A stretch of DNA of 64,000 nucleotides. Origin: Sneathiellales bacterium. GTDB taxonomy: Bacteria > Pseudomonadota > Alphaproteobacteria > JANQFL01. This document shows positions 11,889 to 58,345 of this stretch, one piece after another. The stretch lies in contig JANQFL010000087.1 of assembly GCA_028277845.1 (NCBI GenBank), positions 13,704 through 77,703 of the forward strand. Reading direction: 5' to 3'. Positions within the stretch are counted from its first letter, which is position 1; every line of letters begins with the position of its first letter. Both the position numbers and the translations under genes were made by a program. A model generated the notes under the pieces. That model was given only the letters and a program-made list of their open reading frames with translations, had not been told where the DNA came from and did not search any database.

Positions 11889-11895
11889 CGCGGAG

Positions 11896-17654: not shown

Positions 17655-17687
17655 AGCTGCGTTAAGTATCGGCGCCGGTCGGGGCGG

Positions 17688-18617: not shown

Positions 18618-18657
18618 GACGTCGAACGGCAGGGCGTTATCCGATCGGCTAGGCAGG

Positions 18658-19365: not shown

Positions 19366-19369
19366 GGCG

Positions 19370-20437
19370 TCATGCGTTCGACAGTTGGTCCCACGTTTCC
19401 TTGTACCACTGGCAGTACCGCAGATAGCCGTCCTCGAGTGACCAATTCGGCTCGAAGCCCAGTTCGGTTTGGGCGCGTTCCACCGACAATGTGCCGCGGA
19501 TCGGCTTGTCCTTGGCACGCGGGCGTTCCTCCAGGATGACGTTGGGGACGACCTGCTGCACGACCGATGCAAGTTCGGCGATGGTGCGCGCGCTGCCGCG
19601 CGTGATGTTGAAGGTCTGCGACGCCGGTTTGCCGGGATGGAATGCCAAGGCTCGGATGATTCCCTGTACCAGGTCATCGATATAGGTGAAGTCCAGACGG
19701 CCGTCCCCGCCGCCTTCCAGCAGCAATGGCTTGCCGGTCATGGCGTTCTCGATGAAGATTTGGCTGACCCTGCGGCTGACGCAACGTTCGCCATACAGGG
19801 CGCTGGGGCGGATGATCGACGTGCCGATACCGTGTTGGTGGTTGTAGGTGCGGACCAGCCGTTCAGCCATATATTTGGTGTTGGCGTAGATGCCGCGCGG
19901 CCGCGGACGGGTGCTTTCGTTGACGCTGTCGCCCTCGAAGTCGCCATACACCGTGCTCGAACTCATCAGCATGACAAGATCGACGGGCGCCGCTTCCATG
20001 CGCACCAGTTCGAGCACGTTGCGCAGGGTGATCAGCTGCAAATCGAAACACAGGCCGGGGTCCTTGCGGGCCTGAACGGCGCTGGCGATCGCCGACAGAT
20101 GCACCACCTTGGTCGGCTGGTAGTCATGGAACCAACGCATCAGTTCGACCGGGTCGCGGGCGTCGGCGTTGCACAGTTGGATACCCGCGTCCTTCATCAT
20201 GGCGAACCGCGTCAGCAGGAAGTGCCGGTAGATCCGGCTTTCCAGCGGATCGGTCCGGGCTCCGTAAACGCTGTCGACCAGGCTATTGACCATGAGATTG
20301 TCGAGAACCATGACATCTATGCCCAATCGCCGCAGCTCAAGCGCCAGGTGGTGGCCGATGAAGCCTGCACCGCCGACCAACATGACACGGTCGTTTTCCA
20401 GTTTCTTGGGTACGGCGGCGTAGGAGAGGTCAGTCAT
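19370..20437 (-). CDS. NAD-dependent epimerase/dehydratase (extended SDR); first gene of the glycan island
   Basis: Rossmann motif LVGGAGFIGHHL and catalytic YANTK; AAAGGA-like RBS about 10 nt upstream of the ATG. Confidence 0.8.
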   Translation of the reverse strand: MTDLSYAAVPKKLENDRVMLVGGAGFIGHHLALELRRLGIDVMVLDNLMVNSLVDSVYGARTDPLESRIYRHFLLTRFAMMKDAGIQLCNADARDPVELMRWFHDYQPTKVVHLSAIASAVQARKDPGLCFDLQLITLRNVLELVRMEAAPVDLVMLMSSSTVYGDFEGDSVNESTRPRPRGIYANTKYMAERLVRTYNHQHGIGTSIIRPSALYGERCVSRRVSQIFIENAMTGKPLLLEGGGDGRLDFTYIDDLVQGIIRALAFHPGKPASQTFNITRGSARTIAELASVVQQVVPNVILEERPRAKDKPIRGTLSVERAQTELGFEPNWSLEDGYLRYCQWYKETWDQLSNA

Positions 20438-37894: not shown

Positions 37895-37950
37895 ACCACG
37901 ACAACTGCCGGTTTGATGCTATGCTGCGCGCACCCTCAAATCGGCGCGTC

Positions 37951-38763
37951 ATGGATACTTTCATTCGCATCGCCATTTATGTCGGCATCGGTTATGTGCT
38001 GATCGTGATTTTGGCCGCCTGTTTCCAGCGCTCTTTGCTGTACTTTCCCGACCAGAACCTGCCGGCGCCGCAGGCGGTCGGCGCAACCGGGTTTGCCGCG
38101 GTCAGGTTGACCACCACCGACGGGCTCGACCTGACATCCTGGTACCTGCCGCCGCGATCGGAAGAGAACCCGGTGATCGTGCTGTTTCACGGCAACGCGG
38201 GCAATATCGCACACCGGCTTTTCAAGGCGGTGCCGCTGGCGAGTTCGGGCTACGGTATCCTATTGCTGGAGTACCGCGGCTATGGCGGGAACCCCGGCAG
38301 TCCGACGGAGGAAGGGCTGTATCACGACGGCCGGGCGGCGATCGCGTTCCTGCGCGCGAACGGCGTGTTCGAAAACCGTATCGTCTTGTACGGCGAATCT
38401 CTCGGCAGTGGCGTCGCGGTGCAGATGGCGACAGAGATCACGGCGGGTGCCTTGATACTCGAGGCGCCCTATACCTCCATCCCCGAGGTTGCCGGCAAGC
38501 ACTATCCCATCCTGCCGACCGAATGGCTGACCAAGGACAAGTTCCGCAACAAGGACAAGATTACGGACCTGAACGAGCCGCTGCTTATCGTGCATGGCGC
38601 CAAGGACGACATCATCCCCGTGCAAATGGGCCGCCAGCTCTATGCCCTGGCGCCGACGCCCAAGAAATCCTTCTGGGTGCTGGGCGCTGGACACAATGAC
38701 GTGTTCGGCCCCGAGGTAGCCGACGAGGTGCTCATGTTCATCGACAAATACGTAAATGGCTAA
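37951..38763 (+). CDS. alpha/beta-fold hydrolase with N-terminal membrane anchor
   Basis: TM helix (IAIYVGIGYVLIVILAA), HGNAGN oxyanion-region motif and nucleophile elbow GESLGSG. Confidence 0.7.
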   Translation: MDTFIRIAIYVGIGYVLIVILAACFQRSLLYFPDQNLPAPQAVGATGFAAVRLTTTDGLDLTSWYLPPRSEENPVIVLFHGNAGNIAHRLFKAVPLASSGYGILLLEYRGYGGNPGSPTEEGLYHDGRAAIAFLRANGVFENRIVLYGESLGSGVAVQMATEITAGALILEAPYTSIPEVAGKHYPILPTEWLTKDKFRNKDKITDLNEPLLIVHGAKDDIIPVQMGRQLYALAPTPKKSFWVLGAGHNDVFGPEVADEVLMFIDKYVNG

Positions 38764-39194
38764 AACGCGCCAGCCTCTTCAAATGCTTTCGATATGGCCT
38801 GAAACGGCAGCATGACGCAGATATGACGGCTTTTGTGGCCGGCGACCGGCGTGAACGCATCCAGTTCGGCCCATTCGCCGTCGGGCGGGTTTTCACCCTT
38901 CTTCAGAATGGCCTCCAATTGCGCGGCGACGGCGGCGATTTCTTTCGCGTCGTGTCCCTTGGCGTGGCCGCCGACGACGGAAGCCGAAGCCTGGCACAAC
39001 ACGCAAGCGCGTACCTTGTGGGCAAGCTCGATGACCCGGCCGTTTTCATCCAGCTTGATTTCCAGGGTAATGCGGTCGCCGCACAGGGGATTGTCCACCG
39101 TCACCTTGGCATCGGGCTGGTCCAGTTGACCGGCGCCCACGGCATCGGCAGCCAGGCGCAACAATTGTTTCTGATAGATCTCGTCACTCATCAT
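38760..39194 (-). CDS. Fe-S cluster assembly scaffold/sulfur-acceptor protein (NifU N-terminal/SufU-like)
   Basis: Three conserved Cys contexts (NPLCGD, ACVLCQAS, HICVML); immediately downstream of the cysteine desulfurase with 7 nt spacing. Confidence 0.65.
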   Translation of the reverse strand: MMSDEIYQKQLLRLAADAVGAGQLDQPDAKVTVDNPLCGDRITLEIKLDENGRVIELAHKVRACVLCQASASVVGGHAKGHDAKEIAAVAAQLEAILKKGENPPDGEWAELDAFTPVAGHKSRHICVMLPFQAISKAFEEAGAF

Positions 39195-39200
39195 CCGTAC

Positions 39201-40436
39201 TCAAACAAGTTTACCCATGGCGTCGTCCAAACCGCTCAATAGCGCTTCCACGTCGGCATCGTCGTTGTAAACGGCGAGGCTGGCCCGCGTCGTGCCGATG
39301 ACGTCGTAGAAGTCCATCAGCGGCTGGGCGCAATGATGGCCACCGCGTAATGCCACGCCATGACCGTCGAGGATTTGGCAAATGTCGTGCGGGTGTGCGC
39401 CTTCGATATCGAAGGAAATGACCGGTAGGCGTGATTGCAACCCTTTCGGCCCGATCAGCCTGATGATGCCGCGGCCTTTGTCGAGATTGTCCAGGCCGTC
39501 GATGATGCGTCCGGTGAGACGGCTGAGATGCCCGGCCACCGCCGCCGTATCCACGCCCTGCAGCCATTCCGCCGCCGCCGCCATGCCGACCGCTTGGGCA
39601 ATGGGCGGGGTGCCCGCCTCGAACCGGTGGGGCGGTGGGGCGAATACGGTTTCCTCGATGGTCACCCGGTGAATCATTTCGCCGCCGCCATGGAAGGGCG
39701 GCATGTCGGCCAGAAGCTCGGCTCGGCCCCACAACACGCCGATGCCGTTGGGTCCGAACATCTTGTGGCCGGAGAAGGCGTAGAAATCCACGTCCAGCGC
39801 CTGTACGTCGATGGCGCCGTGGGGCACCCGCTGGGCACCGTCGAGCAACACCTTGGCGCCCACGGCCCGGGCCGCCTCGACCACCCGGCCGACGGCGGTT
39901 TCCGCGCCGGTGACGTTGGAGACATGGGTAACCGCGACCAGCTTGCACTTCTCCGTCACCAGATCGGCCAGGGCGTCCACGTCCAGCCGGCCATCAGGCG
40001 TGGCCGGCACGACCTTGAGCACCACGCCGGTGAGGTCGCGCAATAACTGCCACGGCACGATGTTCGAATGATGCTCGAGCACCGAAATGACGATCTCGTC
40101 ACCCGCACTCAAACCATTGCCGAAGCTGTGCGCCACCAGGTTGATGGCGCCTGTCGTGCCGGAGGTGAAAACCACCTCGTCGGCATCCGCCGCGTTGACG
40201 AACCGGGCCAGGGTATGACGGGCCTGCTCGAACGCCTCGGTCGCTTCCTCGGCCAGGGTGTGCACGCTGCGCAGCACGTTTGCCCGGTGCCGGGTCTCGT
40301 GCTGTTGTATAGCGTCGAGCACGGCCGCCGGCATTTGCGCCGTCGCACCGTTGTCCAGGTAGTGCAGGGCGCTACCCTGAATGTCGCGGTCCAGTATCGG
40401 GAACTGCCGGCGGATCGGCGTCGGGTCAAACCCCAT
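39201..40436 (-). CDS. sufS: cysteine desulfurase, SufS type (class V aminotransferase)
   Basis: PLP-lysine region FYAFSGHKMFGPNGIGVL and active-site Cys region RGGHHCAQP. Confidence 0.85.
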   Translation of the reverse strand: MGFDPTPIRRQFPILDRDIQGSALHYLDNGATAQMPAAVLDAIQQHETRHRANVLRSVHTLAEEATEAFEQARHTLARFVNAADADEVVFTSGTTGAINLVAHSFGNGLSAGDEIVISVLEHHSNIVPWQLLRDLTGVVLKVVPATPDGRLDVDALADLVTEKCKLVAVTHVSNVTGAETAVGRVVEAARAVGAKVLLDGAQRVPHGAIDVQALDVDFYAFSGHKMFGPNGIGVLWGRAELLADMPPFHGGGEMIHRVTIEETVFAPPPHRFEAGTPPIAQAVGMAAAAEWLQGVDTAAVAGHLSRLTGRIIDGLDNLDKGRGIIRLIGPKGLQSRLPVISFDIEGAHPHDICQILDGHGVALRGGHHCAQPLMDFYDVIGTTRASLAVYNDDADVEALLSGLDDAMGKLV

Positions 40437-42076
40437 TACGTTGCTGCCTTCTTGTAATCGCTGAGTGCCTGAACGGTGTCGATATCGATCAGGATGGCGT
40501 CGTCCTCGACGGGCACTTCACAGACCATTTCCTCGTTTTCGCCGATAATGTGCCGGGCCCCCACATCGCCGGAAATCTTCCGCATGGCGGAAAACAGTTC
40601 GGCCGGCCACAGCACCGGATTGCCGCGCTTGCCGTCATAAGTGGGTACGCAGACGCCGCGGCCCTCCAGCGGATTGAAGGCGGCAATCAGCTTGTTGACC
40701 AAGGATGCCGATACCCTGGGCATATCGCCGAGACAGACGACCGCACCGTCGACGTCGCTGCCGAACGCGGATTCCACGTGACCGATGCCGACTTTCAGCG
40801 ATGTGCTCAAGCCGGCGGCGTAGTCGGGGTTGTGCACGAAACGCACGTCCAGATCCTTGAGAATGTCACGGACATTGTCCTGTTCGTGCCCGGTGACGAC
40901 GACGATATCGCGGACATGACTGGCCGAGACGTTTTCCACCACCCGGCGCACCATGGCGATGCCGTCGATATCGGCCAAAAGCTTGTTGATGGCGCCCATG
41001 CGCCGGGACTGGCCGGCGGCCAGGATGACGGCGGCAATTCGCGGTTCGTGGGGCACGACAGGCTCCAACTTTTCCCGGGGTTGCGGACGGCTGACGATTT
41101 CCTTGAGCAACCCGCCGCCACCCATGCGCATGATGTCGGTGCGTGAGGTGTCGATCCCGGCGGCAATACGCTGCAGCACCCAGTCGAAGCCATTCAGCTT
41201 CAGCGACCGGGCACAGCCGGGCACGCCGATGACCGGATCGTCGCCATGATGGGCCAGCAGCAGCAGATTGCCCGGATCGACAGGCATGCCGAAATGGTCG
41301 ACCGTGCCGCCGGCATCCTCGATGCCGGCCGGCACCACGTCGCGGCGGTCGACGATGGCGGAGGCGCCGAAGACCAGGATCGGACTGTAGCCTTGCGCCT
41401 TCAACGAGCCGACGGCCGCCGCGATTTCGTCCTGCCGGTGCCGGCAACGCAGTTCAATACCCAACGTACTGTCGAGCGCCGCAAGCCGGGTCCGCACGGT
41501 CTCCGAGGTTTTGTCGAGAATGCTCTCCTTCATGCCCTCGACGCTGGTCAGCACCAGGCCGGCGTTCATCGGCTTATACGCGGCCAGCTGCAGCAACGGC
41601 GCATTGTCCGCCGCGACCTGCTCCCAGGCATCCAGGGTGGCTTCAGGCGTGGAGAAGGGGATGATCTTGATGGTCGCCACCAGTTGTCCGGCCCGCACGG
41701 GCTCGTAGCGGTTCAGGGTAGCGATAGTCACGGTTTCGTCGATCAGGTTGAGCGCATCGATGCATTCGGGATCGAAATCCAGCAGGCCGTCGCCGTCGGC
41801 CACCAGGTTGCATCGGCCGGTGAACGGCACCGCCATACGCAGGCCTTCACCGCAGACCGCGGCGGCGATGCGGGCGGCGGCTTCGTCCTCGTGTACGTCG
41901 CCGTCTTCGAGCCGGGCCGCGATGACTTCGGTGACGCCGGCCGCCGTCAGGGCCGCGACGTCGTCCTCGTTCAGCAGACGCCCCTTTTTGAACCGGGCGC
42001 CCGACGCATTGGTACTGTGGGCCAGTATGGCGCCAGCGGCGTCCGCGACCGGGATGGTGCCGAAGCGCACGGTCAA
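40436..42076 (-). CDS. molybdopterin-binding domain fused to MobA/MocA-like nucleotidyltransferase (molybdenum cofactor cytidylyltransferase-like)
   Basis: N-terminal MoeA/CinA-like molybdopterin-binding region; C-terminal NTP-transferase motif AAVILAAGQSRRMG. Confidence 0.65.
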   Translation of the reverse strand: MTVRFGTIPVADAAGAILAHSTNASGARFKKGRLLNEDDVAALTAAGVTEVIAARLEDGDVHEDEAAARIAAAVCGEGLRMAVPFTGRCNLVADGDGLLDFDPECIDALNLIDETVTIATLNRYEPVRAGQLVATIKIIPFSTPEATLDAWEQVAADNAPLLQLAAYKPMNAGLVLTSVEGMKESILDKTSETVRTRLAALDSTLGIELRCRHRQDEIAAAVGSLKAQGYSPILVFGASAIVDRRDVVPAGIEDAGGTVDHFGMPVDPGNLLLLAHHGDDPVIGVPGCARSLKLNGFDWVLQRIAAGIDTSRTDIMRMGGGGLLKEIVSRPQPREKLEPVVPHEPRIAAVILAAGQSRRMGAINKLLADIDGIAMVRRVVENVSASHVRDIVVVTGHEQDNVRDILKDLDVRFVHNPDYAAGLSTSLKVGIGHVESAFGSDVDGAVVCLGDMPRVSASLVNKLIAAFNPLEGRGVCVPTYDGKRGNPVLWPAELFSAMRKISGDVGARHIIGENEEMVCEVPVEDDAILIDIDTVQALSDYKKAAT

Positions 42077-42762
42077 CCCCGCCGGAAGGTCTGTACGACC
42101 TCCGCCAACACGGACACGGCGATCTCGGCGGGCGACTTAGCGCCGATATCCAGGCCGATGGGGCCATGGATGCGGGCCATGTCGTCGTCCGTGAAGCCTT
42201 CCGCCCGCAGTCGTTCCAACCGGGCGGCGTGGGTGCGGTTGCTGCCCAGCGCGCCGATATAACTGGCGTTGGAGCGTAAGGCGGTGACCAGGGCCGGATC
42301 GTCGATCTTGGGATCGTGGGTGAGGGTGACGATGGCGCACTGGCTGTCGAGGGACCGTTCCGCCAGGGCGTCATCGGGCCAGTCGTTGGACAGGTCGATG
42401 CCGGGAAAACGCTGTTCGTTGGCAAAAGCCCGGCGCGGATCGATAACCGAGACCTGAAAACCGGCCACGGACGCCATGGAAACCAGGGCCTGGGTTATGT
42501 GCACGGCGCCGACCACGAACATGCGTTTCGGCGGATTGAAGACATTGAGAAACAGCTTGTCGCCGGCCACCTCGACCACGCCGCCGCGATCCGAGCGGAA
42601 GGCATTGCGCACGGCGTCGACCAGCACCGGATCGGCGTCCGAGGTATCCAGTTCCGATTCGTAGAAGAACGCCTGATCCCCGGACTCCAGGTTCGTCGCC
42701 AATACGACCGGCACCTTGCCGGCGCGGTCGGCGATGAGCTGTTCGAGATCCTGGGTTCTCAT
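42073..42762 (-). CDS. XdhC/CoxI-family accessory protein, Rossmann-like C-terminal part
   Basis: XdhC C-terminal-like sequence (MFVVGAVHITQALVSMA...GALGS); overlapping stop/start with neighbours. Confidence 0.6.
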   Translation of the reverse strand: MRTQDLEQLIADRAGKVPVVLATNLESGDQAFFYESELDTSDADPVLVDAVRNAFRSDRGGVVEVAGDKLFLNVFNPPKRMFVVGAVHITQALVSMASVAGFQVSVIDPRRAFANEQRFPGIDLSNDWPDDALAERSLDSQCAIVTLTHDPKIDDPALVTALRSNASYIGALGSNRTHAARLERLRAEGFTDDDMARIHGPIGLDIGAKSPAEIAVSVLAEVVQTFRRG

Positions 42763-42780
42763 CCGGTTCTATCCGCCCGC

Positions 42781-43128
42781 TCAGTCGATTTTTTCCACGA
42801 AGACTTGAATCTTACCGCCGCAGGCCAGGCCCACTTCCCAGGCCTCGCTGTTGCTGACGCCGAATTCCAGCAGCCGGGGTTTGCCCTCCTGGATGACTTC
42901 CTGGGCTTCCTGCACGACGGCGCCTTCGATGCAACCGCCGCTAACTGATCCCGCCATCTGGCCGTCCTCGTCGATGGCCAGCAGGCTGCCGACCGGCCGA
43001 GGGGCCGATCCCCAGGTCGATACGACCGTCGCCAGAGCGACTTGCTTGCCGTCGCGGGTCCACGTTGCGGCTTTCTCCAAAATATCGTCGTGGCCGCCGG
43101 GATCGATGGTCGCTGTCGCCTGTGTCAT
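42781..43128 (-). CDS. XdhC/CoxI-family accessory protein, N-terminal domain (split gene)
   Basis: XdhC N-terminal-like motif (VALATVVSTWGSAPRPVGSLLAI); start at Met 7 gives ATGA overlap with the coxE stop. Confidence 0.6.
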   Translation of the reverse strand: MTQATATIDPGGHDDILEKAATWTRDGKQVALATVVSTWGSAPRPVGSLLAIDEDGQMAGSVSGGCIEGAVVQEAQEVIQEGKPRLLEFGVSNSEAWEVGLACGGKIQVFVEKID

Positions 43129-44339
43129 GCCGCTTGTGTGCTCCATTCCGAGACGCTTTCTTCGGTCCGCGGGCCCTGTTTCATCAAGGCATCCGCCAGG
43201 TCCTGCAGACTATTCAAGTTATGAACCGGCCGGAAATCGTCAACATGGGGAAGAATGGCCTGTATGCCCTTTGATTTGGGCTCGAAGCCGCTGTAACGCA
43301 ACAAGGGATTAAGCCAGATCAGCCGACGGCACGACTTGTGCAGCCGCTCCATCTGGCTGTCCAGGCCTTCGCCGGCGTCCCGGTCCAAACCGTCGCTGAT
43401 CAGCAGCAATACGGCGCCTTGCCCCAGAACCCGGCGCGACCAAACGGTGTTGAACTCTTTCAGGCATTCGCCGATGCGGGTGCCGCCGGACCAGTCCTCG
43501 ACCACTTCGCCGACCTTTTGCAGCGCTACGTCGACGTCGCTTTGCCGCAGATACCGGGTCACGTTGGTCAAACGGGTGCCGAAAGTAAAGGTATGCACCC
43601 GGTCCCGGTCGTTGGTGATGGCGTGCAGGAAATGCAGGAACATGCGCGAATAGTGGCTCATGGAGCCGGACACGTCGCACAGGATGACCAGCGGCGGGTG
43701 CCGGAGCGAGCGGGATCGCCGGCGCAACGGGATCTGGCTGCCGCCGGTACGCAGGCCTGCACGCATGGACCGGCGCATATCGATGCGCGGGCCACTGGGA
43801 TCGGCGACGAACCGCCGGGTCGGCACCTGCATGATGGGCAGGCGCATGCGGGCGATGATGGCCTTGGCCTTGGCAATTTCCTCGGCGGACATGGATTCGA
43901 AATCCATGGTGCGCAGCATTTCCTTGTCGGAATAGGTCAGGGTGGCATCGAGCTCGACCTCCCGCTCATCACCTTCGCGCTCGCTGACATCCGGCGTATC
44001 GCCGAACATGGCATCGGCAAGACGCTTGTCGCCGGCCGCCTTCTCCTTTTCCTCGCCTTCGGTCCGCACGGTCGGCAGCAGCATGGCCATGGCCTTTTCC
44101 AGCATCTGCGGATTGCGCCAGAAGACATGAAATGCTTGATCGAACAACTCGCGCTGGTCGCGCCGGTTGACGAACACGCAGTGCAGGGCCCAGTAGAAAT
44201 CCTGACGGTTTTCCAGCCCGGCCGCCTCGACCGCGCGGACGGCGTCGATCACCCGGCCGGGTCCGACCGGCAGACCGGCCGCGCGCAAGACCCGCGCGAA
44301 GTACATGATGTTCTCGAAGAGGCGACCGTGCACTGCCAT
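43125..44339 (-). CDS. coxE: VWA-domain CO dehydrogenase accessory protein CoxE
   Basis: C-terminal VWA domain with MIDAS-like DVSGSMS. Confidence 0.75.
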   Translation of the reverse strand: MAVHGRLFENIMYFARVLRAAGLPVGPGRVIDAVRAVEAAGLENRQDFYWALHCVFVNRRDQRELFDQAFHVFWRNPQMLEKAMAMLLPTVRTEGEEKEKAAGDKRLADAMFGDTPDVSEREGDEREVELDATLTYSDKEMLRTMDFESMSAEEIAKAKAIIARMRLPIMQVPTRRFVADPSGPRIDMRRSMRAGLRTGGSQIPLRRRSRSLRHPPLVILCDVSGSMSHYSRMFLHFLHAITNDRDRVHTFTFGTRLTNVTRYLRQSDVDVALQKVGEVVEDWSGGTRIGECLKEFNTVWSRRVLGQGAVLLLISDGLDRDAGEGLDSQMERLHKSCRRLIWLNPLLRYSGFEPKSKGIQAILPHVDDFRPVHNLNSLQDLADALMKQGPRTEESVSEWSTQAA

Positions 44340-44354: not shown

Positions 44355-45275
44355 CTACTTGGGTGCTGCCGCCATCTCCTGGTCGATGGCTTTCAGCATG
44401 TTGGCGGCCTCGCTGCCCTGAACCTTGGCGATATCGTCCTGGTATTTGAGCAGCGCGCCGAGGGTGTTGTTGACCGTCTCGGGGTCGAGCACCATGACGT
44501 CCAGTTGCTGCAGGGCCTTGGCCCAATCGATGGTCTCGGCGATGCCGGGCAGTTTGAACAGGTCGCCGGTGCGCAGTTTCTGCACGAAGGCGACGATCTG
44601 TTCGGCCAGACGCTCATCCGCACCGGGCACCTTGCGCTCGAGGATTTCCAGTTCGCGGGCGGCATCCGGGTAGTCGACCCAGTGATACAGACAACGCCGC
44701 TTCAGGGCGTCGTGAATCTCGCGGGTCCGGTTCGAGGTGACGATGACGATGGGCGGTTCCGGGGCTTTGATGGTGCCGATTTCCGGGATGGTGATCTGGT
44801 TGTCGGCCAGGACCTCGAGCAGGAAGGCCTCGAACGCCTCGTCGGAGCGGTCCAGTTCGTCGATCAGCAGCACGGGCGCGCCGCCGGCATGAGGTTCGAG
44901 CGCCTGCAATAGGGGCCGCTCGATCAGGAACTTGCGGGAGAAGATGTCCTTGCTGAGCACGTCGCGGTCGGTGACTCCTTCCGCCTCCGCCAGGCGGATT
45001 TCGATCATCTGGGCTTGGTAATTCCATTCGTAGACGGCGGAAGCGGAATCCAGGCCCTCGTAACACTGCAGACGGACCAGATCGCGGCCCAGAACCTCCG
45101 AGAGGACCTTGGCGATTTCGGTCTTGCCGACCCCGGCTTCCCCTTCCAGGAACAACGGGCGTTGCAGCGATAGGCTGAGGTAAAGCGTCGTCGCCAGAGA
45201 GCGGTCGGAGACATAGTCCCCTTCGGTCAGCATGGCCAGGGTGTCGTCAACGGATGAGGGCAGGGGTCGTGTCAT
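44355..45275 (-). CDS. coxD: MoxR-like AAA+ ATPase CoxD
   Basis: Walker A GEAGVGKT and Walker B LLIDELDR. Confidence 0.8.
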   Translation of the reverse strand: MTRPLPSSVDDTLAMLTEGDYVSDRSLATTLYLSLSLQRPLFLEGEAGVGKTEIAKVLSEVLGRDLVRLQCYEGLDSASAVYEWNYQAQMIEIRLAEAEGVTDRDVLSKDIFSRKFLIERPLLQALEPHAGGAPVLLIDELDRSDEAFEAFLLEVLADNQITIPEIGTIKAPEPPIVIVTSNRTREIHDALKRRCLYHWVDYPDAARELEILERKVPGADERLAEQIVAFVQKLRTGDLFKLPGIAETIDWAKALQQLDVMVLDPETVNNTLGALLKYQDDIAKVQGSEAANMLKAIDQEMAAAPK

Positions 45276-45401: not shown

Positions 45402-46199
45402 TCAGCCGCCCGCGGCGTCCGCCGCCCGGCCGGCCATGACCTTGACCAGATGGGCGCGGTATTCCGGCGTGGCGTGAATATCGCTATTGAGGCCATCGGC
45501 GGATACCGAAGCGCCGTCCAACGCCGACGACGACAGACCACCGGCCAGAGCCTGTTCCAGCGAGGACGCCCGGAACACACACGGTCCCGCGCCGGTCACG
45601 GCCACGCGCACGCCGCCGCCGGTCTTGGCCACCATGACACCTACTAGGGCATAACGGGATGCCGGATTGTGGAACTTCTGGTAATTGGCTGCCTCCGGAA
45701 CCGGGAAGGAAACCGAGGTGATCAGTTCCCCTTCTTCCAACGCGGTTTCGAACATGCCGGTGAAGAAGTCATCCGCGGCGATGCTACGCTTGTTGGTGTT
45801 GACCGTGGCGTTGAGTCCGAGCACCGCCGCCGGATAGTCCGCCGCCGGGTCGTTGTTGGCGATGGAGCCCCCGATGGTGCCACGGTTGCGGACCTGGGGG
45901 TCGCCAATGCCGCCGGCGAGGGCGGCGAGGGCGAGAATGGCCGCAGCCACATCGCCGGATGCCGCCACGTCGGCGTGCCTGGTCATGGCGCCGATGGTCA
46001 CCGAATCGCCGGACACGGTAATGCCCTGCAATTCGGATACACCGGACAGGTCGACCAAGTCGGACGGCGCCGCCAGACGCTGTTTCAGCGTCGGGATCAG
46101 CGTCTGTCCACCGGCAAGGAAACTGCCGTCTTCTGCGCCCGCCGCTGCTGCAGCCGCATCAGCGACACTGCCGGGCTTGTGATATTGAAAGTCATGCAT
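45402..46199 (-). CDS. coxM: CO dehydrogenase/xanthine dehydrogenase-family FAD-binding medium subunit
   Basis: FAD-binding LAGGQTLIP motif and medium-subunit C-terminal region. Confidence 0.8.
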   Translation of the reverse strand: MHDFQYHKPGSVADAAAAAAGAEDGSFLAGGQTLIPTLKQRLAAPSDLVDLSGVSELQGITVSGDSVTIGAMTRHADVAASGDVAAAILALAALAGGIGDPQVRNRGTIGGSIANNDPAADYPAAVLGLNATVNTNKRSIAADDFFTGMFETALEEGELITSVSFPVPEAANYQKFHNPASRYALVGVMVAKTGGGVRVAVTGAGPCVFRASSLEQALAGGLSSSALDGASVSADGLNSDIHATPEYRAHLVKVMAGRAADAAGG

Positions 46200-46211: not shown

Positions 46212-48575
46212 TTATTCCGCAGCAGCCTTGGCGCTGTTCAGTGTCTGCCAAACCTTCAAAGGCGTGGCCGGCATGTCGATGTCGGCACCGATGGCATCGG
46301 TCACGGCGTTGATCACCGCGGCCGGCGAGGCGATGGCGCCCGCTTCGCCCGCACCCTTGACGCCCAACGGATTGAGAGGCGAGGGAACCGGCGACATGCC
46401 GATGTCGATGCTGGGCAGGTCGTCGGCCCGCGGCATGGCGTAATCCATGTACGAACCGGTGACCAACTGGCCGCTATCGTCGTCGTAGACGCAGCCTTCC
46501 AGCAACGCCTGGCCGACGCCCTGGGCGATACCGCCATGGACCTGGCCTTCGACGATCATCGGATTGATGACGTTGCCGAAATCGTCGACCGCAGAATACT
46601 TGATGATATCGACGACGCCGGTATCGGGATCGACTTCCACCTCGGCGATATGCACACCCGACGGGAAGGAGAAGTTGAGCGGATCATAGAACGCGGTTTC
46701 GTCCAGACCCGGCTCGAGGCCTTCCGGATAGTTGTGCGGGACATAGGCCGCAAAGGCGACTTCGCCGATATTCATGGCCTTATCGGTACCGGCCACCGAG
46801 AAATTGCCGCCCGAGAACTCTATGTCCTCCTCGGCGGCTTCGAGCGCGTGCGCCGCGATCTTCTTGCCTTTCTCGATGATCTTGTCGGCTGCCTTCATGA
46901 TAGCGGAGCCGCCGACGGCGATCGACCGGGAACCGTAGGTGCCCATCCCGAACGGACCCTTGTCGGTGTCGCCTTCGACGACCTCGACGTTTTCGTAGGG
47001 CACGCCTAGTTTGTCTGCGACCACCTGGGCGAACGTCGTGGCGTGGCCCTGGCCGTGGCTGTGGGTACCGGCCAAAACGGTCACATTGCCGGTCGGGTTG
47101 AAGCGGATTTGCGCCGCCTCCCACAGACCGACGCCGCCGCCCAGCGCACCGACCGCCGCCGACGGCGCGATGCCGCAGGCTTCGATGTAGGCGCTCAGGC
47201 CGACACCGCGCAGCTTGCCGCGCGATTGCGCATCCGCCTTACGGGCCGCCAGGCCGTCATAATCGGCCAGCTTGAGAGCTTCCTCGAGGGCCTTGGGGTA
47301 ATCGCCGCAGTCGTAGGTGTGCACGACCGGTGTCTCGTACGGGAACGCGTCATTGGGAATGAAGTTCCGCCGGCGGATTTCCGCCGGATCCAAGCCCATT
47401 TCCCGGGCCGCATTCTCGACCAAGCGCTCGACCACATAGGTCGCTTCCGGCCGTCCGGCGCCGCGATAGGCATCCACCGGTGACGTGTTGGTGTAGACAC
47501 CCTTGACCTCGGCATAGATGACCGGCGTGGTGTACTGGCCGGCCAGCAACGTGGCGTACAGGTAGGTCGGCACCGCCGACGCGAAGGTCGACAGATAGGC
47601 GCCCAGATTGGCGATGGTGCTGACCCGCATGGCGATGAACTTGCCGTTCTCGTCCATGGCCATTTCGGCGTGGGTCACGTGGTCGCGGCCGTGGGCGTCG
47701 GAGAGGAACGATTCGGACCGTTCCGCCACCCACTTGATCGGCCGGTTGACCCGGCGCGAGGCCCAAAGCGTGGCCGTTTCCTCGGCATAGACGAAGATCT
47801 TCGAGCCGAAGCCGCCGCCCACATCCGGCGCGATCACGCGCAGTTTGTGTTCCGGCGCGACCTGCAGGAAGGCCGACATGATCAGACGGCAGACATGCGG
47901 ATTCTGGCTGGTGGTGTACAGCGTCATGTCCTCGGTGCCGGGGTCGTACTCGGCAACCGCTGCCCGCGGCTCCATGGCGTTGGGAATCAGCCGGTTGTTG
48001 ATCATGTCCAAGGATGTGACGTGATGGGCCTTCGAGAACGCCTCGTCGACCACCGCCTTGTCGCCCAGCTCCCAGTCGTAGCAGATGTTGCCGGGGATAT
48101 CGGCGTGGATCTGTGGCGCACCGGCCGCGGCGGCACCGGCGGTATCGGTCACGCTCGGCAGTTCGTCGTAGTCGACCTCGACCAACTCGGCGGCATCTTT
48201 CGCCTGGTTGTAGGTGTCAGCAACCACGATGGCGACATGGTCGCCGACATAGTTGACCTTGTCGACGGCGAGGGCCGGGTGCGCCGGCGCGTTCATCGGC
48301 GATCCGTCCTTGGAGCTGATCATCCAGCCGCAGATCAACGGGCCGATGCCGTCGGCGGCCATTTCCTGGCCGGTCAGAACGGCGACCACACCCGGCGCGG
48401 CCGCGGCGGCGCTGGTGTCGACGCCATTGATCTTGGCGTTGGCGTACGGCGAACGGACGAAGTAGGCGTAAGCCTGTCCGGGCCTGTTGATGTCGTCGAG
48501 ATAGTTGCCCTTGCCGGTCAGGAAGCGTTGGTCTTCCTTACGGACGGTGCGGGTGCCAATTCCATTGTCAGCCAT
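46212..48575 (-). CDS. coxL: aerobic-type CO dehydrogenase large subunit, form II (molybdopterin-binding)
   Basis: 787 aa molybdopterin-binding subunit; active-site loop AYRGAGR (47451-47471) is the form II signature rather than AYRCSFR of form I. Confidence 0.85.
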
Positions 48576-48576: not shown

Positions 48577-49044
48577 TCAGCCTCCCATACCTTGCGCGCC
48601 GGCCTTCACGGCTTTGACGATGTTGTGGTAGCCCGTACAGCGGCAGATATTGCCATCCAGGTTTTCGCGGATGGTCTCTTCCGACGGATTGGGGTTGTTG
48701 TTGACCAGATCCACGGCGCTCATGACCATGCCCGGCGTGCAAAAACCGCATTGCAGTCCATGGTTTTCGCGGAATGCTTCCTGCATCGGATGCAGCTGAC
48801 CGTCCTTGGCCAGACCTTCGATGGTGGTGACGTCGGCGCCGTCGGCCTGCAAAGCCAGGGTCGTGCAGGATTTGACGCTGCGGCCGTCGACGTGGACGAC
48901 GCAGGCGCCGCATTGGCTGGTGTCGCAACCGATGTGCGTGCCGGTCAGTCCGAGTTGGTCCCGAATAAACTGCGAAAGCAGAGTCCGCGCTTCGACTTCG
49001 CCGGAATACTGCTTTCCGTTCACCGACATGGAGACGGTGGGCAT
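48577..49044 (-). CDS. coxS: CO dehydrogenase small subunit, [2Fe-2S]-binding
   Basis: Two [2Fe-2S] motifs (CDTSQCGAC and CGFCTPGM...CRCTGY); start at Met 12 of the ORF. Confidence 0.85.
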
Positions 49045-49250
49045 AAGGCTCCTCCCTTTGTCGCGATCCGGGTTCATGGCCCGGATGCTGGATTTGTGAA
49101 TGACAGATTTTTGGGATTAGTCCGCCAAATCTGCCCATAGTTTCAAACTGTTAATCAGCGGGGTCAACACAGAATTTGCGCAACCCCAGGCAATGCTTCT
49201 AAATTTTCTGTGGTCCTCCCCTCGAACGGTCTTTTTGTCCCGACACGAAA

Positions 49251-49859
49251 TCAGCCGCCGCGGGAAATGAAAAACAAGACGACCACGACAACGGCCGCCA
49301 GCACGAGCCCCCAAATCAATGAATTAGACTTGCCTGCGTTTTCCGCAAGGGCCGGCACGGCTTCAGCCTGCAATTCTTCCATGACAGTTTCGGGTATATC
49401 TTCCGCCGCCGCTTCCGCACCGCCGCCGACCAGTTCCCGGAAGGTGGAGAAAAACTCATCCGCCATCTTGCGAGCGGTACCATCCACCAGGCGCGATCCG
49501 ATCTGCGCCAGCTTGCCGCCGACTTTGGCTTCAACGGCGTAACGCAGGACGGTTGCAGTACCGTCTTCTTCCAGCGTCACCTTGGCTTCGCCCTTGCCGA
49601 AACCGGCAGCACCGCCTTTGCCTTCGCCGGAAAGGGTGTAGCCGTTCGGCGGATCCAGGTCGGACAGAGTCACGTGGCCTTTGAATTTGGCCTTCACCGG
49701 ACCGACTTTCGCGGTGACGTCGGCACTGAATTCGGTGTCTGAAATCTTTTCCAAGGATTCACAGCCGGGAATACATTGTTTGAGGATTTCGGGATCGTTG
49801 AGCGCTTCCCAGACTTGTGTCCGGCTGGCCGAAATCCGCTGCTCCCCGGTTAGCTCCAT
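49251..49859 (-). CDS. coxG: CoxG-family (SRPBCC) protein with C-terminal membrane anchor
   Basis: CoxG-like N-terminus (MELTGEQRISASRTQVWEALNDPEILKQCIPGCE) and C-terminal TM helix; start at Met 52 of the ORF. Confidence 0.7.
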   Translation of the reverse strand: MELTGEQRISASRTQVWEALNDPEILKQCIPGCESLEKISDTEFSADVTAKVGPVKAKFKGHVTLSDLDPPNGYTLSGEGKGGAAGFGKGEAKVTLEEDGTATVLRYAVEAKVGGKLAQIGSRLVDGTARKMADEFFSTFRELVGGGAEAAAEDIPETVMEELQAEAVPALAENAGKSNSLIWGLVLAAVVVVVLFFISRGG

Positions 49860-52960: not shown

Positions 52961-53057
52961 CGATAGACGGTACGTTCCCACACGAAATGTGTTGTGATGA
53001 TTGCGTTGCGGCCGACATTGGCGGGAGCGCAACGAATTGCTGCAAGGACGACCAGCG

Positions 53058-53891
53058 ATGAGCAAGAAGACGGAAACACTCGAAGTCCGCGTGTCACCGG
53101 AACTGAAGGCCAGATTCACGGCCGTAAGCCGGGAGCGAGGCCAGCCCATGAGCCATATCATCCGGCATTTGATGCAACAGGAAATCGATTCGTATGCGCC
53201 AGACCCTCACCAGCACGGAGTACGCGCTATGAATTCATGGAAATTACACCGGTTCGGCACCATCGCAGCATCGGGACTCGTCGTTCTAGGCTTGGCACTC
53301 GCCATGAACGCGGCCACCCAGTCCACCGTTTCGGCCCGGGCGGACGTTCGCGTGACGTTTGCCGAAATGGACGTCAACGACGACGGCAAGATCACACAAC
53401 AGGAATACGAAACGTTCTGGAAGCAGATGGAGGAAGACTTCGAGCAGGAAGAGGACATTGCTCACGCGGACGACACTCCCGCGGCGTGCAAGGCCGATTT
53501 CGCCAAACTCGAAGAACTGGACCGCCATCACGGCCACGACCAATACCGTTATGATTTCTCGGCGGTCGACGGCAACAAGGATGGCGCCGTTCGTTATGCC
53601 GAGCTACAGTCCGCCTTCGACGTGATGCACACGGCCGAATTCCGGGAGATCGACCGGAACCAGGACGCGTTCCTGGACACCGGCGAACTCATGCGGGCTT
53701 TTCAGGAAGACGAACCCAGCCTCAGCAAGGCCTGTAAGGACGCCATGCTCGAATCCCACCCGGATGCGTTCGAGTTTCACGAAGACGATGCGCGGTTGAT
53801 CCTGGCGCAATTCGACGAAAACCGCGACCGGAAGATCAGCTTGCAGGAGTTTATCGAAAATCAGCCCGCCGATATCGGTTTCGGCGACTGA
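53058..53891 (+). CDS. predicted RHH (CopG-like) domain fused to a transmembrane helix and a periplasmic EF-hand domain; alternatively a signal-peptide EF-hand protein starting at 53229
   Basis: In-frame N-terminal RHH-like segment (LEVRVSPELKARFTAVSRERGQPMSHIIRHLMQQEI) with AAGGA RBS, then a hydrophobic helix with positive residues on the N-side, then canonical EF-hand loops (DVNDDGKITQQE, DGNKDGAVRYAE, DENRDRKISLQE). Confidence 0.5.
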   Translation: MSKKTETLEVRVSPELKARFTAVSRERGQPMSHIIRHLMQQEIDSYAPDPHQHGVRAMNSWKLHRFGTIAASGLVVLGLALAMNAATQSTVSARADVRVTFAEMDVNDDGKITQQEYETFWKQMEEDFEQEEDIAHADDTPAACKADFAKLEELDRHHGHDQYRYDFSAVDGNKDGAVRYAELQSAFDVMHTAEFREIDRNQDAFLDTGELMRAFQEDEPSLSKACKDAMLESHPDAFEFHEDDARLILAQFDENRDRKISLQEFIENQPADIGFGD

Positions 53892-53968: not shown

Positions 53969-54940
53969 TCATTCCGCCTTCTTTTTCATCTTCTCAAGCT
54001 GCTTTTTGAACTGCTCGCACGGATCGTTCGTGTCGACCCTGGGCGTGAACCACACGAAGTCGAATTTGTCCGCGTCTTCGTACGCGGCGATGTCCGTGGC
54101 ATCGTGGGAAACCTCGCGAAATCCGACACTGACAACGGTTCCATCCGGATCGATGATGCGCAGATAGAAGGGTACGCCACGATCCAACCTGGCGTGGCCG
54201 GCGCCGGTAATGAGAACGGCGCCGTCACGGCTCCCACCGTAGACCATGCGCTCCGACATCACCGCGTCGCGTGCACGCTGCACACGGGCAATGGCTGGAA
54301 CCGCATTGGGCGGTATCTGGTTGCAGTGAGACACGACGATTTCGTCCTCGAGTTCTTTCTGCAGCACTTCGGGAAACGGCTTGTCCAGCCCGGATTTACC
54401 GACCAAGTCCTGACCGAGGACAGCAAATCCCTGACGGGCGACACCGCGGTTGTTCTTACGCGGCAGGTTGGCCGCTACGACAGTCGCTCCGGCGGCGACA
54501 GCCGCATCGGCAATCGGTTGGTAGTTGGACCAGTCGGGCCAGCCGGATCGTTTCCATTCAATCCGTTCTCCGAGCCTACCCGCATCCGAATGCCCCTCGG
54601 ACAAATACGCGTCGATGACCGGCTGCTTGTCGGTTTCGATCATTTCGAAAGCCAAATCGGGCCGCCGGCCAGTGGCATAGACCGTCCGTGCCAGTTTGGC
54701 CTGAAGTCGGTGGTGATCGCGGTTGTCATGTTTCTCCCCAAGCAGAACATACCTGGCCCGCCGGACCGCGGCGGCGACGTCTTCCGCGGTGACAAACTGT
54801 TGCGTGCGTGTGGACCATATCTTGCCAATCAAGGGATGATCGGCGAGCGCCGAGTGATGCCAGTCGGACGCATCGGCCGAAAGCGGCCATACGAAGGCCA
54901 GAAGCGCGACAAGGAAGCCTTTGAACCCGCGCCTAGGCAT
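53969..54940 (-). CDS. ChaN-family (haem-binding/Tiki-like) periplasmic protein
   Basis: Signal peptide from internal Met (MPRRGFKGFLVALLAFVWPLSADA) and ChaN-like motif YVLLGEKHDNRDHH. Confidence 0.55.
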   Translation of the reverse strand: MPRRGFKGFLVALLAFVWPLSADASDWHHSALADHPLIGKIWSTRTQQFVTAEDVAAAVRRARYVLLGEKHDNRDHHRLQAKLARTVYATGRRPDLAFEMIETDKQPVIDAYLSEGHSDAGRLGERIEWKRSGWPDWSNYQPIADAAVAAGATVVAANLPRKNNRGVARQGFAVLGQDLVGKSGLDKPFPEVLQKELEDEIVVSHCNQIPPNAVPAIARVQRARDAVMSERMVYGGSRDGAVLITGAGHARLDRGVPFYLRIIDPDGTVVSVGFREVSHDATDIAAYEDADKFDFVWFTPRVDTNDPCEQFKKQLEKMKKKAE

Positions 54941-56615
54941 AATAAAGCAGCAGATAGATGGCGAGCAGGACCGCCACCCACAGTACCGTACTGCCCGTGG
55001 GCCAGGTGCGTGCCAGAATGCCTTGCGGTCCATGATGGCGGAAAACACCGGCAACGATGGTGTCGAGGTTGCGCCGGGTCCAAACGCTTGCCGACTTGTT
55101 GAACTGGACGATGGCATCGGTCAACCGGTCGACGATCACATATCCGAACACCCGGTAGAACCAATCGAAGTCCAGCGTGATGGTCAGCGTGCGTTTCATC
55201 ATCGGCAGCAGCACGAAGAAGGCCAGCCCTGCAAACAACAGCAATTGAAGCATATTGATCACGTGGGCAGCGGTGTACGGCGCGTACTGGACCGGATACG
55301 GCAATAGATCGTAGAGGAACTGGGGCCATAGTCCGATGCCGATGCAGGCCGCCGCGAACAGAATCATGGCGAGCCGCATATTCCACGGCGGATCGGGGGG
55401 CCGCATGCCGGAATCCTTCTGGAAGAACACGAACCACGGGAACTTGATGCCGGCATGCAGGAAGACGCCGGCGGACGCGGCGGTCAGCAGGAACCAGATG
55501 ATGGCCATGTGCTCGTCCGCCGCGCCTTGGCTGATCATGGATTTCGATACGAATCCCGATGTCCACGGGAACGACGAAATGGCCAGGGCACCGATGGTAC
55601 CGCATAGTGCCGTCAGCGGCATGCTTTGAAACAGTCCGCCGAGGTCGGTGCATTTGCGCTTGCCGGTCATGTACAGCACCGCACCGGCCGACATGAGCAG
55701 CAACGCCTTGTAGATGATGTGGGTAAAGGCATGGGCGGCGGCGCCATTCAGGCTCATCTCCGTACCGATGCCGATGCCCGTGACCATGAACCCGACCTGA
55801 TTGACGATGCTGTAGGCGAGAATGCGCCGCATGTCGTTTTCCAGCAGCGCATAGACGATGCCGTAGAACACCATGAAGATGCCGATATAGATCAGGATCT
55901 CGGTGCCGGGAAACCCGCGCATGAGGACATAGACCGCCGTCTTGGTGGTAAAGGCGGAGAGGAACACCGTACCGCTCCACGACGCCTCGGGATAGGCATC
56001 GGGCAGCCAGGCCGAGAGCGGCGGCGCACCGGCGTTGAGCAGGAAACCGGCGAGGATCATCCAGGTCCCGAAACTGTCGGCTTCCATGGCGCCGAAAGCC
56101 AGCGATCCGGTATCCGCCACATGGGCGACGATGCCGGTCATCAGCACGACGCCGCCCAGCAAGTGTATGATCAGATAGCGGATGGAGGCGCGGTAGGCCG
56201 CGGTCGTGGCGGCGCTCCAAATCACCATGGTCGACGCCACCGCCATGATTTCCCAGAACACGAAGGCGGTGAACAGATCACCGGCCATGGCCACGCCGAT
56301 GGCGCTGCCCGCATACACGAACCCCGCGACCAGTTCGACGGTGCGGTCCTGATTGAGCGCGAACAGGCCGCCGCCGAATGCCATGATGGCGAAGATGGTG
56401 GCGAACAGCCGTCCCAGCGAATCGGCCCGGACCGGCTCTATCACGTAGTCGAGGAACGGCAAAGCCGAAACCATGTCGCCCGGCACCTGCCAGATCGCGA
56501 ACAAAGCGAGCAACGGGAGCGCCAGAGTAAACACGGCGCGGATAGTCCGTCCGCCAAATAGAAGCAACGCGGCACCGAGGATCAGGATGAGGCCGGGCGG
56601 AAGGCTAGTCAGCAT
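54933..56615 (-). CDS. proton-pumping antiporter-like subunit (MrpD/NuoL/M/N family)
   Basis: 560 aa polytopic membrane protein with antiporter-module-like helices. Confidence 0.75.
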   Translation of the reverse strand: MLTSLPPGLILILGAALLLFGGRTIRAVFTLALPLLALFAIWQVPGDMVSALPFLDYVIEPVRADSLGRLFATIFAIMAFGGGLFALNQDRTVELVAGFVYAGSAIGVAMAGDLFTAFVFWEIMAVASTMVIWSAATTAAYRASIRYLIIHLLGGVVLMTGIVAHVADTGSLAFGAMEADSFGTWMILAGFLLNAGAPPLSAWLPDAYPEASWSGTVFLSAFTTKTAVYVLMRGFPGTEILIYIGIFMVFYGIVYALLENDMRRILAYSIVNQVGFMVTGIGIGTEMSLNGAAAHAFTHIIYKALLLMSAGAVLYMTGKRKCTDLGGLFQSMPLTALCGTIGALAISSFPWTSGFVSKSMISQGAADEHMAIIWFLLTAASAGVFLHAGIKFPWFVFFQKDSGMRPPDPPWNMRLAMILFAAACIGIGLWPQFLYDLLPYPVQYAPYTAAHVINMLQLLLFAGLAFFVLLPMMKRTLTITLDFDWFYRVFGYVIVDRLTDAIVQFNKSASVWTRRNLDTIVAGVFRHHGPQGILARTWPTGSTVLWVAVLLAIYLLLYYA

Positions 56616-56859
56616 CGTAGTAACGATCCTTCCGCTTCAAGAACACGCCCAGCCCCTTGGCGAAAAACACCATGACCGCGCAGGTCACAAAGCCGTACCA
56701 GGAAAAGAACCCGAACGTTCCATCGAGCCCGAAATGCGGGTGGCCGACGAGCCAGATGTCGGCAAGGACAAACAGGGCAAGCCCCGCCAGCCCGCCACGC
56801 CAGAGCCAGCGGATCGTGTTGGGCCGGACCAGCCAATGCAGGTCTTGTTGCTTGCTCAT
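56605..56859 (-). CDS. small hypothetical membrane protein
   Basis: 84 codons from internal Met (MSKQQDLHWLVRP...), two predicted TM helices, overlapping-stop arrangement between two antiporter-like genes. Confidence 0.35.
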   Translation of the reverse strand: MSKQQDLHWLVRPNTIRWLWRGGLAGLALFVLADIWLVGHPHFGLDGTFGFFSWYGFVTCAVMVFFAKGLGVFLKRKDRYYDAD

Positions 56860-58337: not shown

Positions 58338-58345
58338 CTGGTCCG

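Follow-up and report, generated by a model that had tools for sequence, protein, structure and literature searches.

An 11-gene cox-type cluster on the minus strand of a 64,000-nucleotide stretch of a Sneathiellales genome (contig JANQFL010000087.1, positions 13,704 to 77,703; this whole stretch is referred to as the window) ends with two genes that encode a SufS-type cysteine desulfurase and a small SufU-like protein. We consider it rather probable that this pair constitutes a pathway-specific sulfur relay, in which sulfur would pass from SufS via the SufU-like protein to the molybdenum cofactor (Moco) bound by XdhC, where it would form the terminal sulfido ligand (Mo=S) of the adjacent form II CoxL-type enzyme. 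Enzymes that belong to the xanthine oxidase family are inactive without this ligand, and XdhC binds Moco. As the lineages to which the two proteins belong are neighbours of XdhC in dozens of species, and not of genes for iron-sulfur (Fe-S) assembly, they probably supply sulfur to Moco.

The sufS gene is intact and encodes a cysteine desulfurase of the SufS family. The product of 411 residues matches Pfam Aminotran_5 over residues 25-399 with an E-value of 8e-134 and exceeds the cutoff of the NCBIfam 'SufS family' model TIGR01979 (520.9 vs 475.1 bits); it remains under the cutoffs of the equivalog models specific for E. coli SufS and for CsdA. The lysine that binds pyridoxal phosphate (PLP), K225, the catalytic cysteine C369 within the motif HHCAQP, and H350 of an HPHD motif, together with the equivalents of E. 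coli H123, H124, D200, R359 and R379, are invariant in 47 cluster-linked SufS proteins. The HPHD histidine, which we take to occupy the position of B. subtilis His342, was considered as a marker of SufU-partnered SufS proteins and rejected, as it is present in every non-E. coli SufS examined. SufS-type enzymes possess a short, buried catalytic loop and require a dedicated persulfide acceptor, either SufE or SufU, and the persulfide would thus be expected to be handed to the SufU-like protein.

The best NCBIfam match of the SufU-like protein is the SufU model TIGR01994, with a score of 72.5 bits that stays under the equivalog cutoff of 92.5; Pfam NifU_N is matched with 46 bits, and the IscU/NifU-type scaffold models TIGR01999 (28 vs 192 bits) and TIGR03419 (24 vs 188 bits) are both missed. 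Structural modeling using AlphaFold2 (mean pLDDT 94) suggested that the protein adopts a SufU fold, and a Foldseek search with the model gave TM scores of 0.82-0.89 to Brucella 5UFT and to the SufU structures of M. tuberculosis and B. subtilis. A previous interpretation of this DNA from its letters alone, termed here the sequence-only reading, had described a small protein with three cysteines; there are in fact four (C38, C64, C67 and C126), which are, like D40, invariant or nearly so among 120 homologues. C38, D40, C64 and C126 line up with the metal ligands of SufU from S. pyogenes and M. tuberculosis. An extra cysteine that forms a CxxC (CxLCQA) was rejected as a trait unique to the family, since the canonical SufU of Polaromonas also has CAIC. 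In the databases, relatives appear under the names 'cysteine desulfurase' and 'iron-sulfur cluster assembly scaffold protein'.

The pair resembles the SufS-SufU systems of B. subtilis and M. tuberculosis (5XT5, 6JZV, 8ODQ, 9DCL) in the order of sufS followed by sufU, in the tight coupling of the two genes, in the fold of the small protein (TM 0.82-0.87) and in its Cys/Asp/Cys/Cys ligand set. It differs from them in that the SufU-like protein shares only 24-27% identity with these proteins, scores below the equivalog cutoff, belongs to a separate clade and is proposed to deliver sulfur to Moco and not to the SufBCD scaffold. Unlike canonical SufU, it does not reside in a sufBCD operon in any inspected locus but beside xdhC and mocA. 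The closest solved structure is that of the Brucella abortus 'NifU-like N-terminal' protein (5UFT; 92 bits, 36% identity, TM 0.89), a structural genomics entry whose name gives no specific function. This protein falls into the SufU-like clade together with relatives from Paracoccus and Microvirga but has just two of the four cysteines left and is missing the aspartate. The resulting two-cysteine branch (Paracoccus, L092, 7001-7435; Microvirga, L093, 7001-7462; Brucella, PDB 5UFT) has lost Asp40, Cys67 and Cys126. The copy of Microvirga ossetica is located between an xdhC-mocA operon and coxGSLMDE, and that of Paracoccus lies beside hisI and recG, unrelated to cox or xdhC.

The cluster is arranged in the order coxG-S-L-M-D-E, the N-terminal half of xdhC, its C-terminal half, a gene for a Moco-binding/MocA fusion, sufS and the sufU-like gene (Table 1). 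The mocA stop and the sufS start codon have one base in common (TAATG), and a gap of 6 nt separates sufS from the sufU-like gene, so that the gene packing looks like that of an operon. The gene that follows is convergent and encodes an alpha/beta-hydrolase, which implies that the sufS/sufU-like pair truly closes the cluster. The stop codons of the sufU-like and hydrolase genes overlap by 4 nt (38760-38763), leaving no space for a terminator, and a terminator scan of the minus strand between 38760 and 48900 gave no terminator-like site. Accordingly, most of what the sequence-only reading had described stands: a SufS-type desulfurase and a small acceptor gene at 38760-40436, both confirmed as minus-strand open reading frames; their position behind the XdhC/MocA genes with overlapping or nearly overlapping ends, borne out by the 1-nt overlap and the 6-nt gap; and a cox operon with the XdhC/MocA genes upstream, as substantiated by domain matches. 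It had also remarked that no sufBCD genes are adjacent, and this holds across the whole window: a tblastn search with E. coli SufA/B/C/D/E, IscS/U/A, HscA/B and Fdx revealed no other Suf or Isc gene within the 64 kb, the only matches being the cluster SufS and a generic ABC ATPase.

With the SufU-like protein as query, a protein search yielded 235 relatives, of which five were looked up and all five found in the same kind of cluster. Scanning one genome per species gave at least 572 matching stretches, from which the best 80 loci were retrieved. These and the loci from the protein look-ups were annotated by tblastn with the cluster proteins of the window and E. coli Suf proteins, and the context counts given here refer to 74 informative loci from other species, each covering 3 kb or more upstream. 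In 72 of the 74, the gene directly upstream of the SufU-like gene is sufS, mocA or xdhC, at a gap of no more than 183 nt, and xdhC occurs in the flank of 70. The cluster sufS is present in 42 loci, always as the next gene upstream of the SufU-like one and no more than 53 nt away from it, coxD and coxE occur in 50, and sufB was located within 10 kb of the SufU-like gene in a single one. The hosts comprise Alpha-, Beta- and Gammaproteobacteria, Myxococcota (Anaeromyxobacter) and, with one metagenome-assembled genome (MAG), Acidobacteriota; two of the loci that carry the cluster (L089, L090) stem from complete genomes, and the cluster sufS is present in the complete genomes CP059265 and AP021857. 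The SufU-like protein is hence the constant element and a dedicated SufS is optional. In L005-L009, which include Sneathiella aquimaris, the SufU-like gene follows straight after the MocA fusion with no sufS between them. Among cultured carriers, Desertibaculum subflavum has the cluster sufS, and Sneathiella aquimaris, Zavarzinia sp. CC-PAN008, Inquilinus limosus and a Pelagibius sp. are without it.

The linkage to xdhC outlasts rearrangements of the gene order. Two Ectothiorhodospiraceae MAGs (L020, L075) show the order xdhC-sufS-sufU-coxGSLMDE and an Anaeromyxobacter locus (L038) the order mocA-xdhC-sufU, and in Thiodiazotropha (L042, L044, L046) the pair is linked to a different enzyme of the xanthine oxidase family along with xdhC. 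Large flanks are available for 51 loci, 18 of which show no match to coxS, coxL or coxM there; six of the 18 (L022, L028, L073, L074, L078, L086) are also devoid of coxDE and retain xdhC-(mocA)-(sufS)-sufU, strongly suggesting that the SufU-like gene travels with XdhC and not with the Fe-S subunit. The suggestion of the sequence-only reading that the pair may be a cluster-specific sulfur donor, and not part of general Fe-S assembly, therefore gains support by comparative inference, as the linkage holds in 72 of 74 loci and tracks xdhC and not the gene for the Fe-S subunit, sufBCD is found beside one locus, and the SufS and SufU-like proteins each form a clade of their own.

For the SufS phylogeny, outgroups were taken from annotated suf operons (Paracoccus, Sphingomonas, Polaromonas, Paraburkholderia, Xanthomonas, Legionella, Listeria and E. 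coli) and supplemented with Deinococcus, Azospirillum and the Brucella 4W91 sequence, to a total of 11, of which eight reside in sufBCD operons (Alpha-, Beta- and Gammaproteobacteria and Listeria). The 47 cluster-linked SufS proteins are monophyletic with respect to these 11 in 100 of 100 neighbor-joining (NJ) bootstraps; the median identity amounts to 60% among them and to 47% when they are set against the first six outgroups compared. Similarly, the SufU-like family, including its two-cysteine relatives, is split from five canonical SufU proteins in 100/100 NJ bootstraps. Those of Polaromonas, Paraburkholderia, Legionella and Listeria are encoded beside sufS in suf operons that contain sufBCD, and that of Deinococcus lies beside a sufS, with no sufBCD annotated in a 13-kb stretch. 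In the Polaromonas, Paraburkholderia and Legionella loci (L096, L102, L105), the canonical SufU scores above the NCBIfam cutoff, bears the SufU name and is encoded within sufBCDS-sufU operons, and SufU is thus not confined to Gram-positive bacteria. When the presence of sufS is mapped on the SufU-like tree, an interspersed pattern of low resolution emerges, which is suggestive of repeated loss of sufS from the clusters.

The separate SufS and SufU-like lineages indicate that the pair in the window is not a standard SUF pair that came to be located here by accident. It might still be argued that the two genes are ordinary housekeeping SUF components which happen to lie beside the cox operon and take part in general Fe-S biogenesis together with sufBCD genes at another place in the genome. 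The database names of the relatives would agree with this, as would the one related locus (L085) with sufBCD at a distance of 7 kb. However, the position is kept in 72 of 74 loci from several phyla, both proteins belong to clades apart from their counterparts in sufBCD operons, the small protein scores under the SufU equivalog cutoff, and 32 loci keep the SufU-like gene without an adjacent sufS. We therefore regard a housekeeping function as very unlikely. In L085, which is alone among the related loci in having sufBCD within 10 kb, these genes (17247-20413) lie downstream of the cox-linked sufS/sufU-like pair on the same strand; the available sequence stops before any sufS that could follow sufD.

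In the relay that we propose, SufS, with PLP on Lys225, would desulfurate L-cysteine and carry the resulting persulfide on Cys369. The persulfide would then move to the SufU-like protein, likeliest to Cys38 of a Cys38/Asp40/Cys64/Cys126 metal site, comparable to the Bacillus SufS-SufU pair, and from there the sulfur may be handed to Moco on the split XdhC, the cofactor being in its cytosine dinucleotide form through the MocA fusion. The oxo ligand would be exchanged for Mo=S ahead of the insertion of the cofactor into CoxL, which is the proposed final recipient of the sulfurated cofactor. The SufU-like protein would thus act as an adaptor that commits sulfur to the Moco route, and in clusters without a sufS of their own it presumably uses a housekeeping desulfurase; such an adaptor role would explain both its conservation and the losability of sufS. 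Each of the sulfur-transfer steps, the identity of the acceptor cysteine and the presence of Mo=S in the target enzyme are what we infer.

To our knowledge, the only characterised bacterial sulfur donor for Mo=S is the essential NifS4 of R. capsulatus, which acts on XdhC; this XdhC-NifS4 Moco sulfuration was reportedly described by Neumann et al. in 2007. NifS4 binds XdhC and swaps the oxo for the sulfido ligand on the XdhC-bound Moco before its insertion (PMC2997495, PMC13653126). As in that system, the XdhC chaperone in the cluster is encoded together with an enzyme of the xanthine oxidase family (CoxS, CoxL, CoxM) and is the tightest genomic partner. In contrast to R. capsulatus, a separate SufS lineage is encoded within the cluster, a SufU-fold protein that does not feature in the published model is its most conserved element, XdhC is split over two genes and the cofactor is probably molybdopterin cytosine dinucleotide (MCD). 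The last point depends on the fusion protein, whose C-terminal domain is assigned to the MocA-type, MobA-like NTP transferases and would make the cytosine dinucleotide form of Moco. Its 340-residue N-terminal domain, which is probably molybdopterin-binding, matches MoCF_biosynth weakly, with 20.8 bits that stay under the cutoff. The two parts of the fusion exist as separate genes in Microvirga ossetica, where they are annotated as 'molybdopterin-binding protein' and 'nucleotidyltransferase family protein'.

The presence of such other Moco-tailoring functions, i.e. the MocA fusion and its probable molybdopterin-binding domain, might also be taken to mean that the pair provides sulfur for the dithiolene of molybdopterin (MPT) by thiocarboxylation of MoaD, and thereby boosts Moco synthesis during expression of the enzyme. 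We attach hardly any probability to this explanation: the Pfam and NCBIfam searches reported no MoaD, MoaE, MoeB, rhodanese or TusA match in the window cluster (the related loci were not screened for them), and the tight partner XdhC acts after MPT synthesis (PMC2997495).

It should be noted that several points weigh against the proposed relay. The evidence for it consists of gene context and phylogeny, drawn from the best 80 of at least 572 genome matches and from NJ trees with few outgroups, none of them from genomes that hold a cluster-linked SufS. The cluster sufS is missing from 32 of the 74 loci, and two of the 74 (L013, L088) carry the SufU-like gene with no xdhC nearby. Further, many homologous clusters with a split xdhC, on replicons of Rhizobium, Agrobacterium, Shinella and Azospirillum, contain neither the SufU-like gene nor sufS. 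Thus, the pair is not needed for the enzyme class in general, and the module rather represents a lineage-specific accessory than a universal requirement. CoxS needs two [2Fe-2S] clusters, and the ligand set of the SufU-like protein would fit an Fe-S scaffold equally well, as M. tuberculosis SufU was crystallised with a [2Fe-2S] cluster (PDB 9DCL). Finally, the carbon monoxide dehydrogenase (CODH) of O. carboxidovorans is sulfurated in a CoxD-dependent manner with the cofactor already inside the apoenzyme (PMC4240915), so that the acceptor in the present cluster could differ from XdhC.

The first of the two alternatives that arise from these last points is a dedicated mini Fe-S assembly system, a local and enzyme-specific route in which SufS gives sulfur and the two [2Fe-2S] clusters of CoxS are assembled on the SufU-like scaffold. 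The small protein shares its fold and ligands with the IscU/SufU scaffold superfamily, its four invariant cysteines could hold a cluster as seen in the M. tuberculosis structure, and CoxS with its two [2Fe-2S] domains is encoded in the same operon. However, the SufU-like gene tracks xdhC and mocA and not coxS, as evident from the 18 of 51 loci without a coxS/L/M match in the flanks and the six bare xdhC modules among them, and related cox clusters with the same CoxS do without it. Alongside, there is no gene for an A-type carrier, Nfu, a ferredoxin or a chaperone, and the sequence of the SufU-like protein, when read for it, contains no chaperone motif of the LPPVK type. On balance, this explanation appears unlikely to us.

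A second alternative takes up the situation in Oligotropha carboxidovorans. There, similar to the window cluster, a CoxD AAA+ ATPase, a CoxE VWA protein, an XdhC-domain protein and CoxG are found alongside coxMSL. In the Oligotropha CODH, the copper at the Cu-S-Mo site is bound by the cysteine of the form I motif AYXCSFR. By its sequence, the CoxL of the window is of the form II type; it displays AYRGAGR at residues 369-375 (47451-47471) and not the form I motif, and scores 671.5 bits against the form I CODH model TIGR02416, which has a cutoff of 991. The activity of form II CoxL has been described as one that 'remains unresolved' (PMC13240472). By contrast, the O. carboxidovorans enzyme is of form I, has a Cu-S-Mo site and is sulfurated within the folded apoenzyme; its Mo sulfuration is required, the sulfur source is stated as unknown, and no desulfurase or SufU-like gene is mentioned in the cox cluster (coxMSL, coxDEFG) as described (PMC4240915). 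It is conceivable that the pair feeds the Mo site in apo-CoxL in place via CoxD and CoxE, with XdhC only stabilising or inserting the cofactor. CoxD and CoxE are encoded in the cluster and in 50 of 74 related loci. On the other side, six loci whose flanks contain neither coxD nor coxE keep xdhC and the SufU-like gene, the upstream neighbour of the SufU-like gene is sufS, mocA or xdhC in 72 of 74 loci, and the form II CoxL is devoid of the active-site cysteine of form I (PMC13240472). We thus consider sulfuration within apo-CoxL to be quite improbable.

The relay via XdhC-bound Moco also invites comparison with the eukaryotic Moco sulfurases of the ABA3/MOCOS/Maroon-like type, with which it would share a dedicated desulfurase committed to Mo=S via a persulfide and a Moco-binding partner. 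The desulfurase of the eukaryotic Moco sulfurase has been described as more SufS-like than NifS- or IscS-like (PMC13653126). ABA3/MOCOS is a single polypeptide with a C-terminal MOSC domain; here, three or four proteins would be involved, domain searches detected no MOSC match in any cluster protein, and XdhC would be the Moco binder. It might be speculated that a multi-protein Moco sulfurase is widespread in bacteria, in at least several hundred species, in which a SufU-fold protein recruited from Fe-S assembly carries persulfide sulfur from SufS, either dedicated or housekeeping, to XdhC-bound Moco. Such a system would be the counterpart of ABA3/MOCOS and the missing sulfur source of cox-type molybdoenzymes, a generalisation for and against which we see the case as evenly poised.

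Table 1. Genes of the window cluster, functional residues of the two terminal gene products and the convergent neighbour (positions in the window)
Feature	Position	Strand	Matches and remarks
Alpha/beta-hydrolase, convergent	37921-38763	+	
SufU-like protein, 144 aa, four Cys, proposed persulfide carrier	38760..39194	-	NifU_N; TIGR01994 below cutoff
SufU-like Cys126	38817-38819	-	
SufU-like Cys67	38994-38996	-	
SufU-like Cys64	39003-39005	-	
SufU-like Asp40	39075-39077	-	
SufU-like Cys38	39081-39083	-	
sufS, group II (SufS-type) cysteine desulfurase, 411 aa	39201..40436	-	TIGR01979, Aminotran_5
SufS C369, catalytic	39330-39332	-	HHCAQP
SufS H350	39387-39389	-	HPHD
SufS K225, PLP lysine	39762-39764	-	
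Moco-binding/MocA fusion, 546 aa	40436..42076	-	NTP_transf_3 E = 2e-40; TIGR03310 (MocA) 156 bits, below cutoff
XdhC C-terminal (Rossmann) half; Moco chaperone, proposed sulfur recipient site	42073..42762	-	XdhC_C E = 7e-45
XdhC N-terminal half (XdhC_CoxI domain)	42781..43146	-	PF02625 E = 1e-28
CoxE-type VWA maturation protein	43125..44339	-	VWA_CoxE E = 4e-70
CoxD-type MoxR AAA+ ATPase	44355..45275	-	AAA_5, AAA_3; MadB-type ATPase 267 bits
CoxM, FAD-binding medium subunit	45402..46199	-	FAD_binding_5 E = 1e-47
CoxL, molybdopterin-binding large subunit, form II type	46212..48575	-	MoCoBD_1, MoCoBD_2
CoxS, small subunit, two [2Fe-2S] clusters	48577..49077	-	Fer2_2 E = 2e-35
CoxG (SRPBCC), start uncertain	49251..49859	-	COXG E = 3e-40

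Several further features of the cluster and its surroundings were observed. The split of XdhC into two genes (42073-43146) recurs in nearly all related loci that have both halves inside the retrieved sequence, and also on annotated Rhizobiaceae and Azospirillum replicons, where two 'XdhC family protein' genes are listed. The longest open reading frame for coxG begins with a GTG at 50012 and would encode 253 residues, with the COXG domain commencing only at residue 56; an alternative ATG at 49859 leads to a product of 202 residues, similar to the homologues. In two metagenomic relatives (L005 and L006, 5273-6127 in both), a gene with a Fic domain is inserted between coxD and coxE. A multi-subunit cation/proton antiporter cluster of the Mrp/Mnh type (54933-61063, minus strand) is located a few kb from the cox cluster and is its neighbour in L007, L008 and L010 as well, and this recurrence in distant relatives suggests that the antiporter-cox neighbourhood is conserved. 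Similarly, the hydrolase, Flg_bbr_C, Sel1 and PAS_5 neighbours of the window cluster recur in the relative L002. A plus-strand gene at 53001-53891 encodes a bacterial protein of 296 residues that contains several calcium-binding motifs of the EF-hand type. The left third of the window (1-20000), and likewise L100, belongs to polysaccharide biosynthesis; in the window, this region encodes several glycosyltransferases as well as a sulfotransferase, a methyltransferase and a B12-binding radical SAM protein, and it is unrelated to the sufS/sufU-like finding. A 12.8-kb read-assembly contig, reached from a gene at the edge of the window, carries only genes for polysaccharide synthesis.

The sulfuration of Moco by a desulfurase together with XdhC is already known; what is new here is the dedicated SufS lineage and a putative SufU-like adaptor that had previously not been assigned. 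A full-text search of the literature outside subscription returned no paper linking SufU with XdhC, and no match was obtained for form II coxL together with a cysteine desulfurase. As judged by titles and abstracts, no paper described a NifU-XdhC, SufS-XdhC or coxD/coxE-cysteine desulfurase association of this kind. A review on the Moco sulfido ligand dated October 2026 covers only the NifS4-XdhC pair and never mentions SufU (PMC13653126).

The conserved SufS lineage, and especially the putative SufU-like adaptor with its linkage to XdhC across many species, thus represent concrete candidates that can be put to the test. If the proposed relay is correct, the SufU fold would be used outside of Fe-S assembly, the two-cysteine relatives of the Brucella 5UFT type would be further offshoots in sulfur trafficking, and the SufU-like family would carry a possibly misleading database name, 'iron-sulfur cluster assembly scaffold protein'. 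In addition, the pair could aid the heterologous production of active enzymes of the form II CoxL type.

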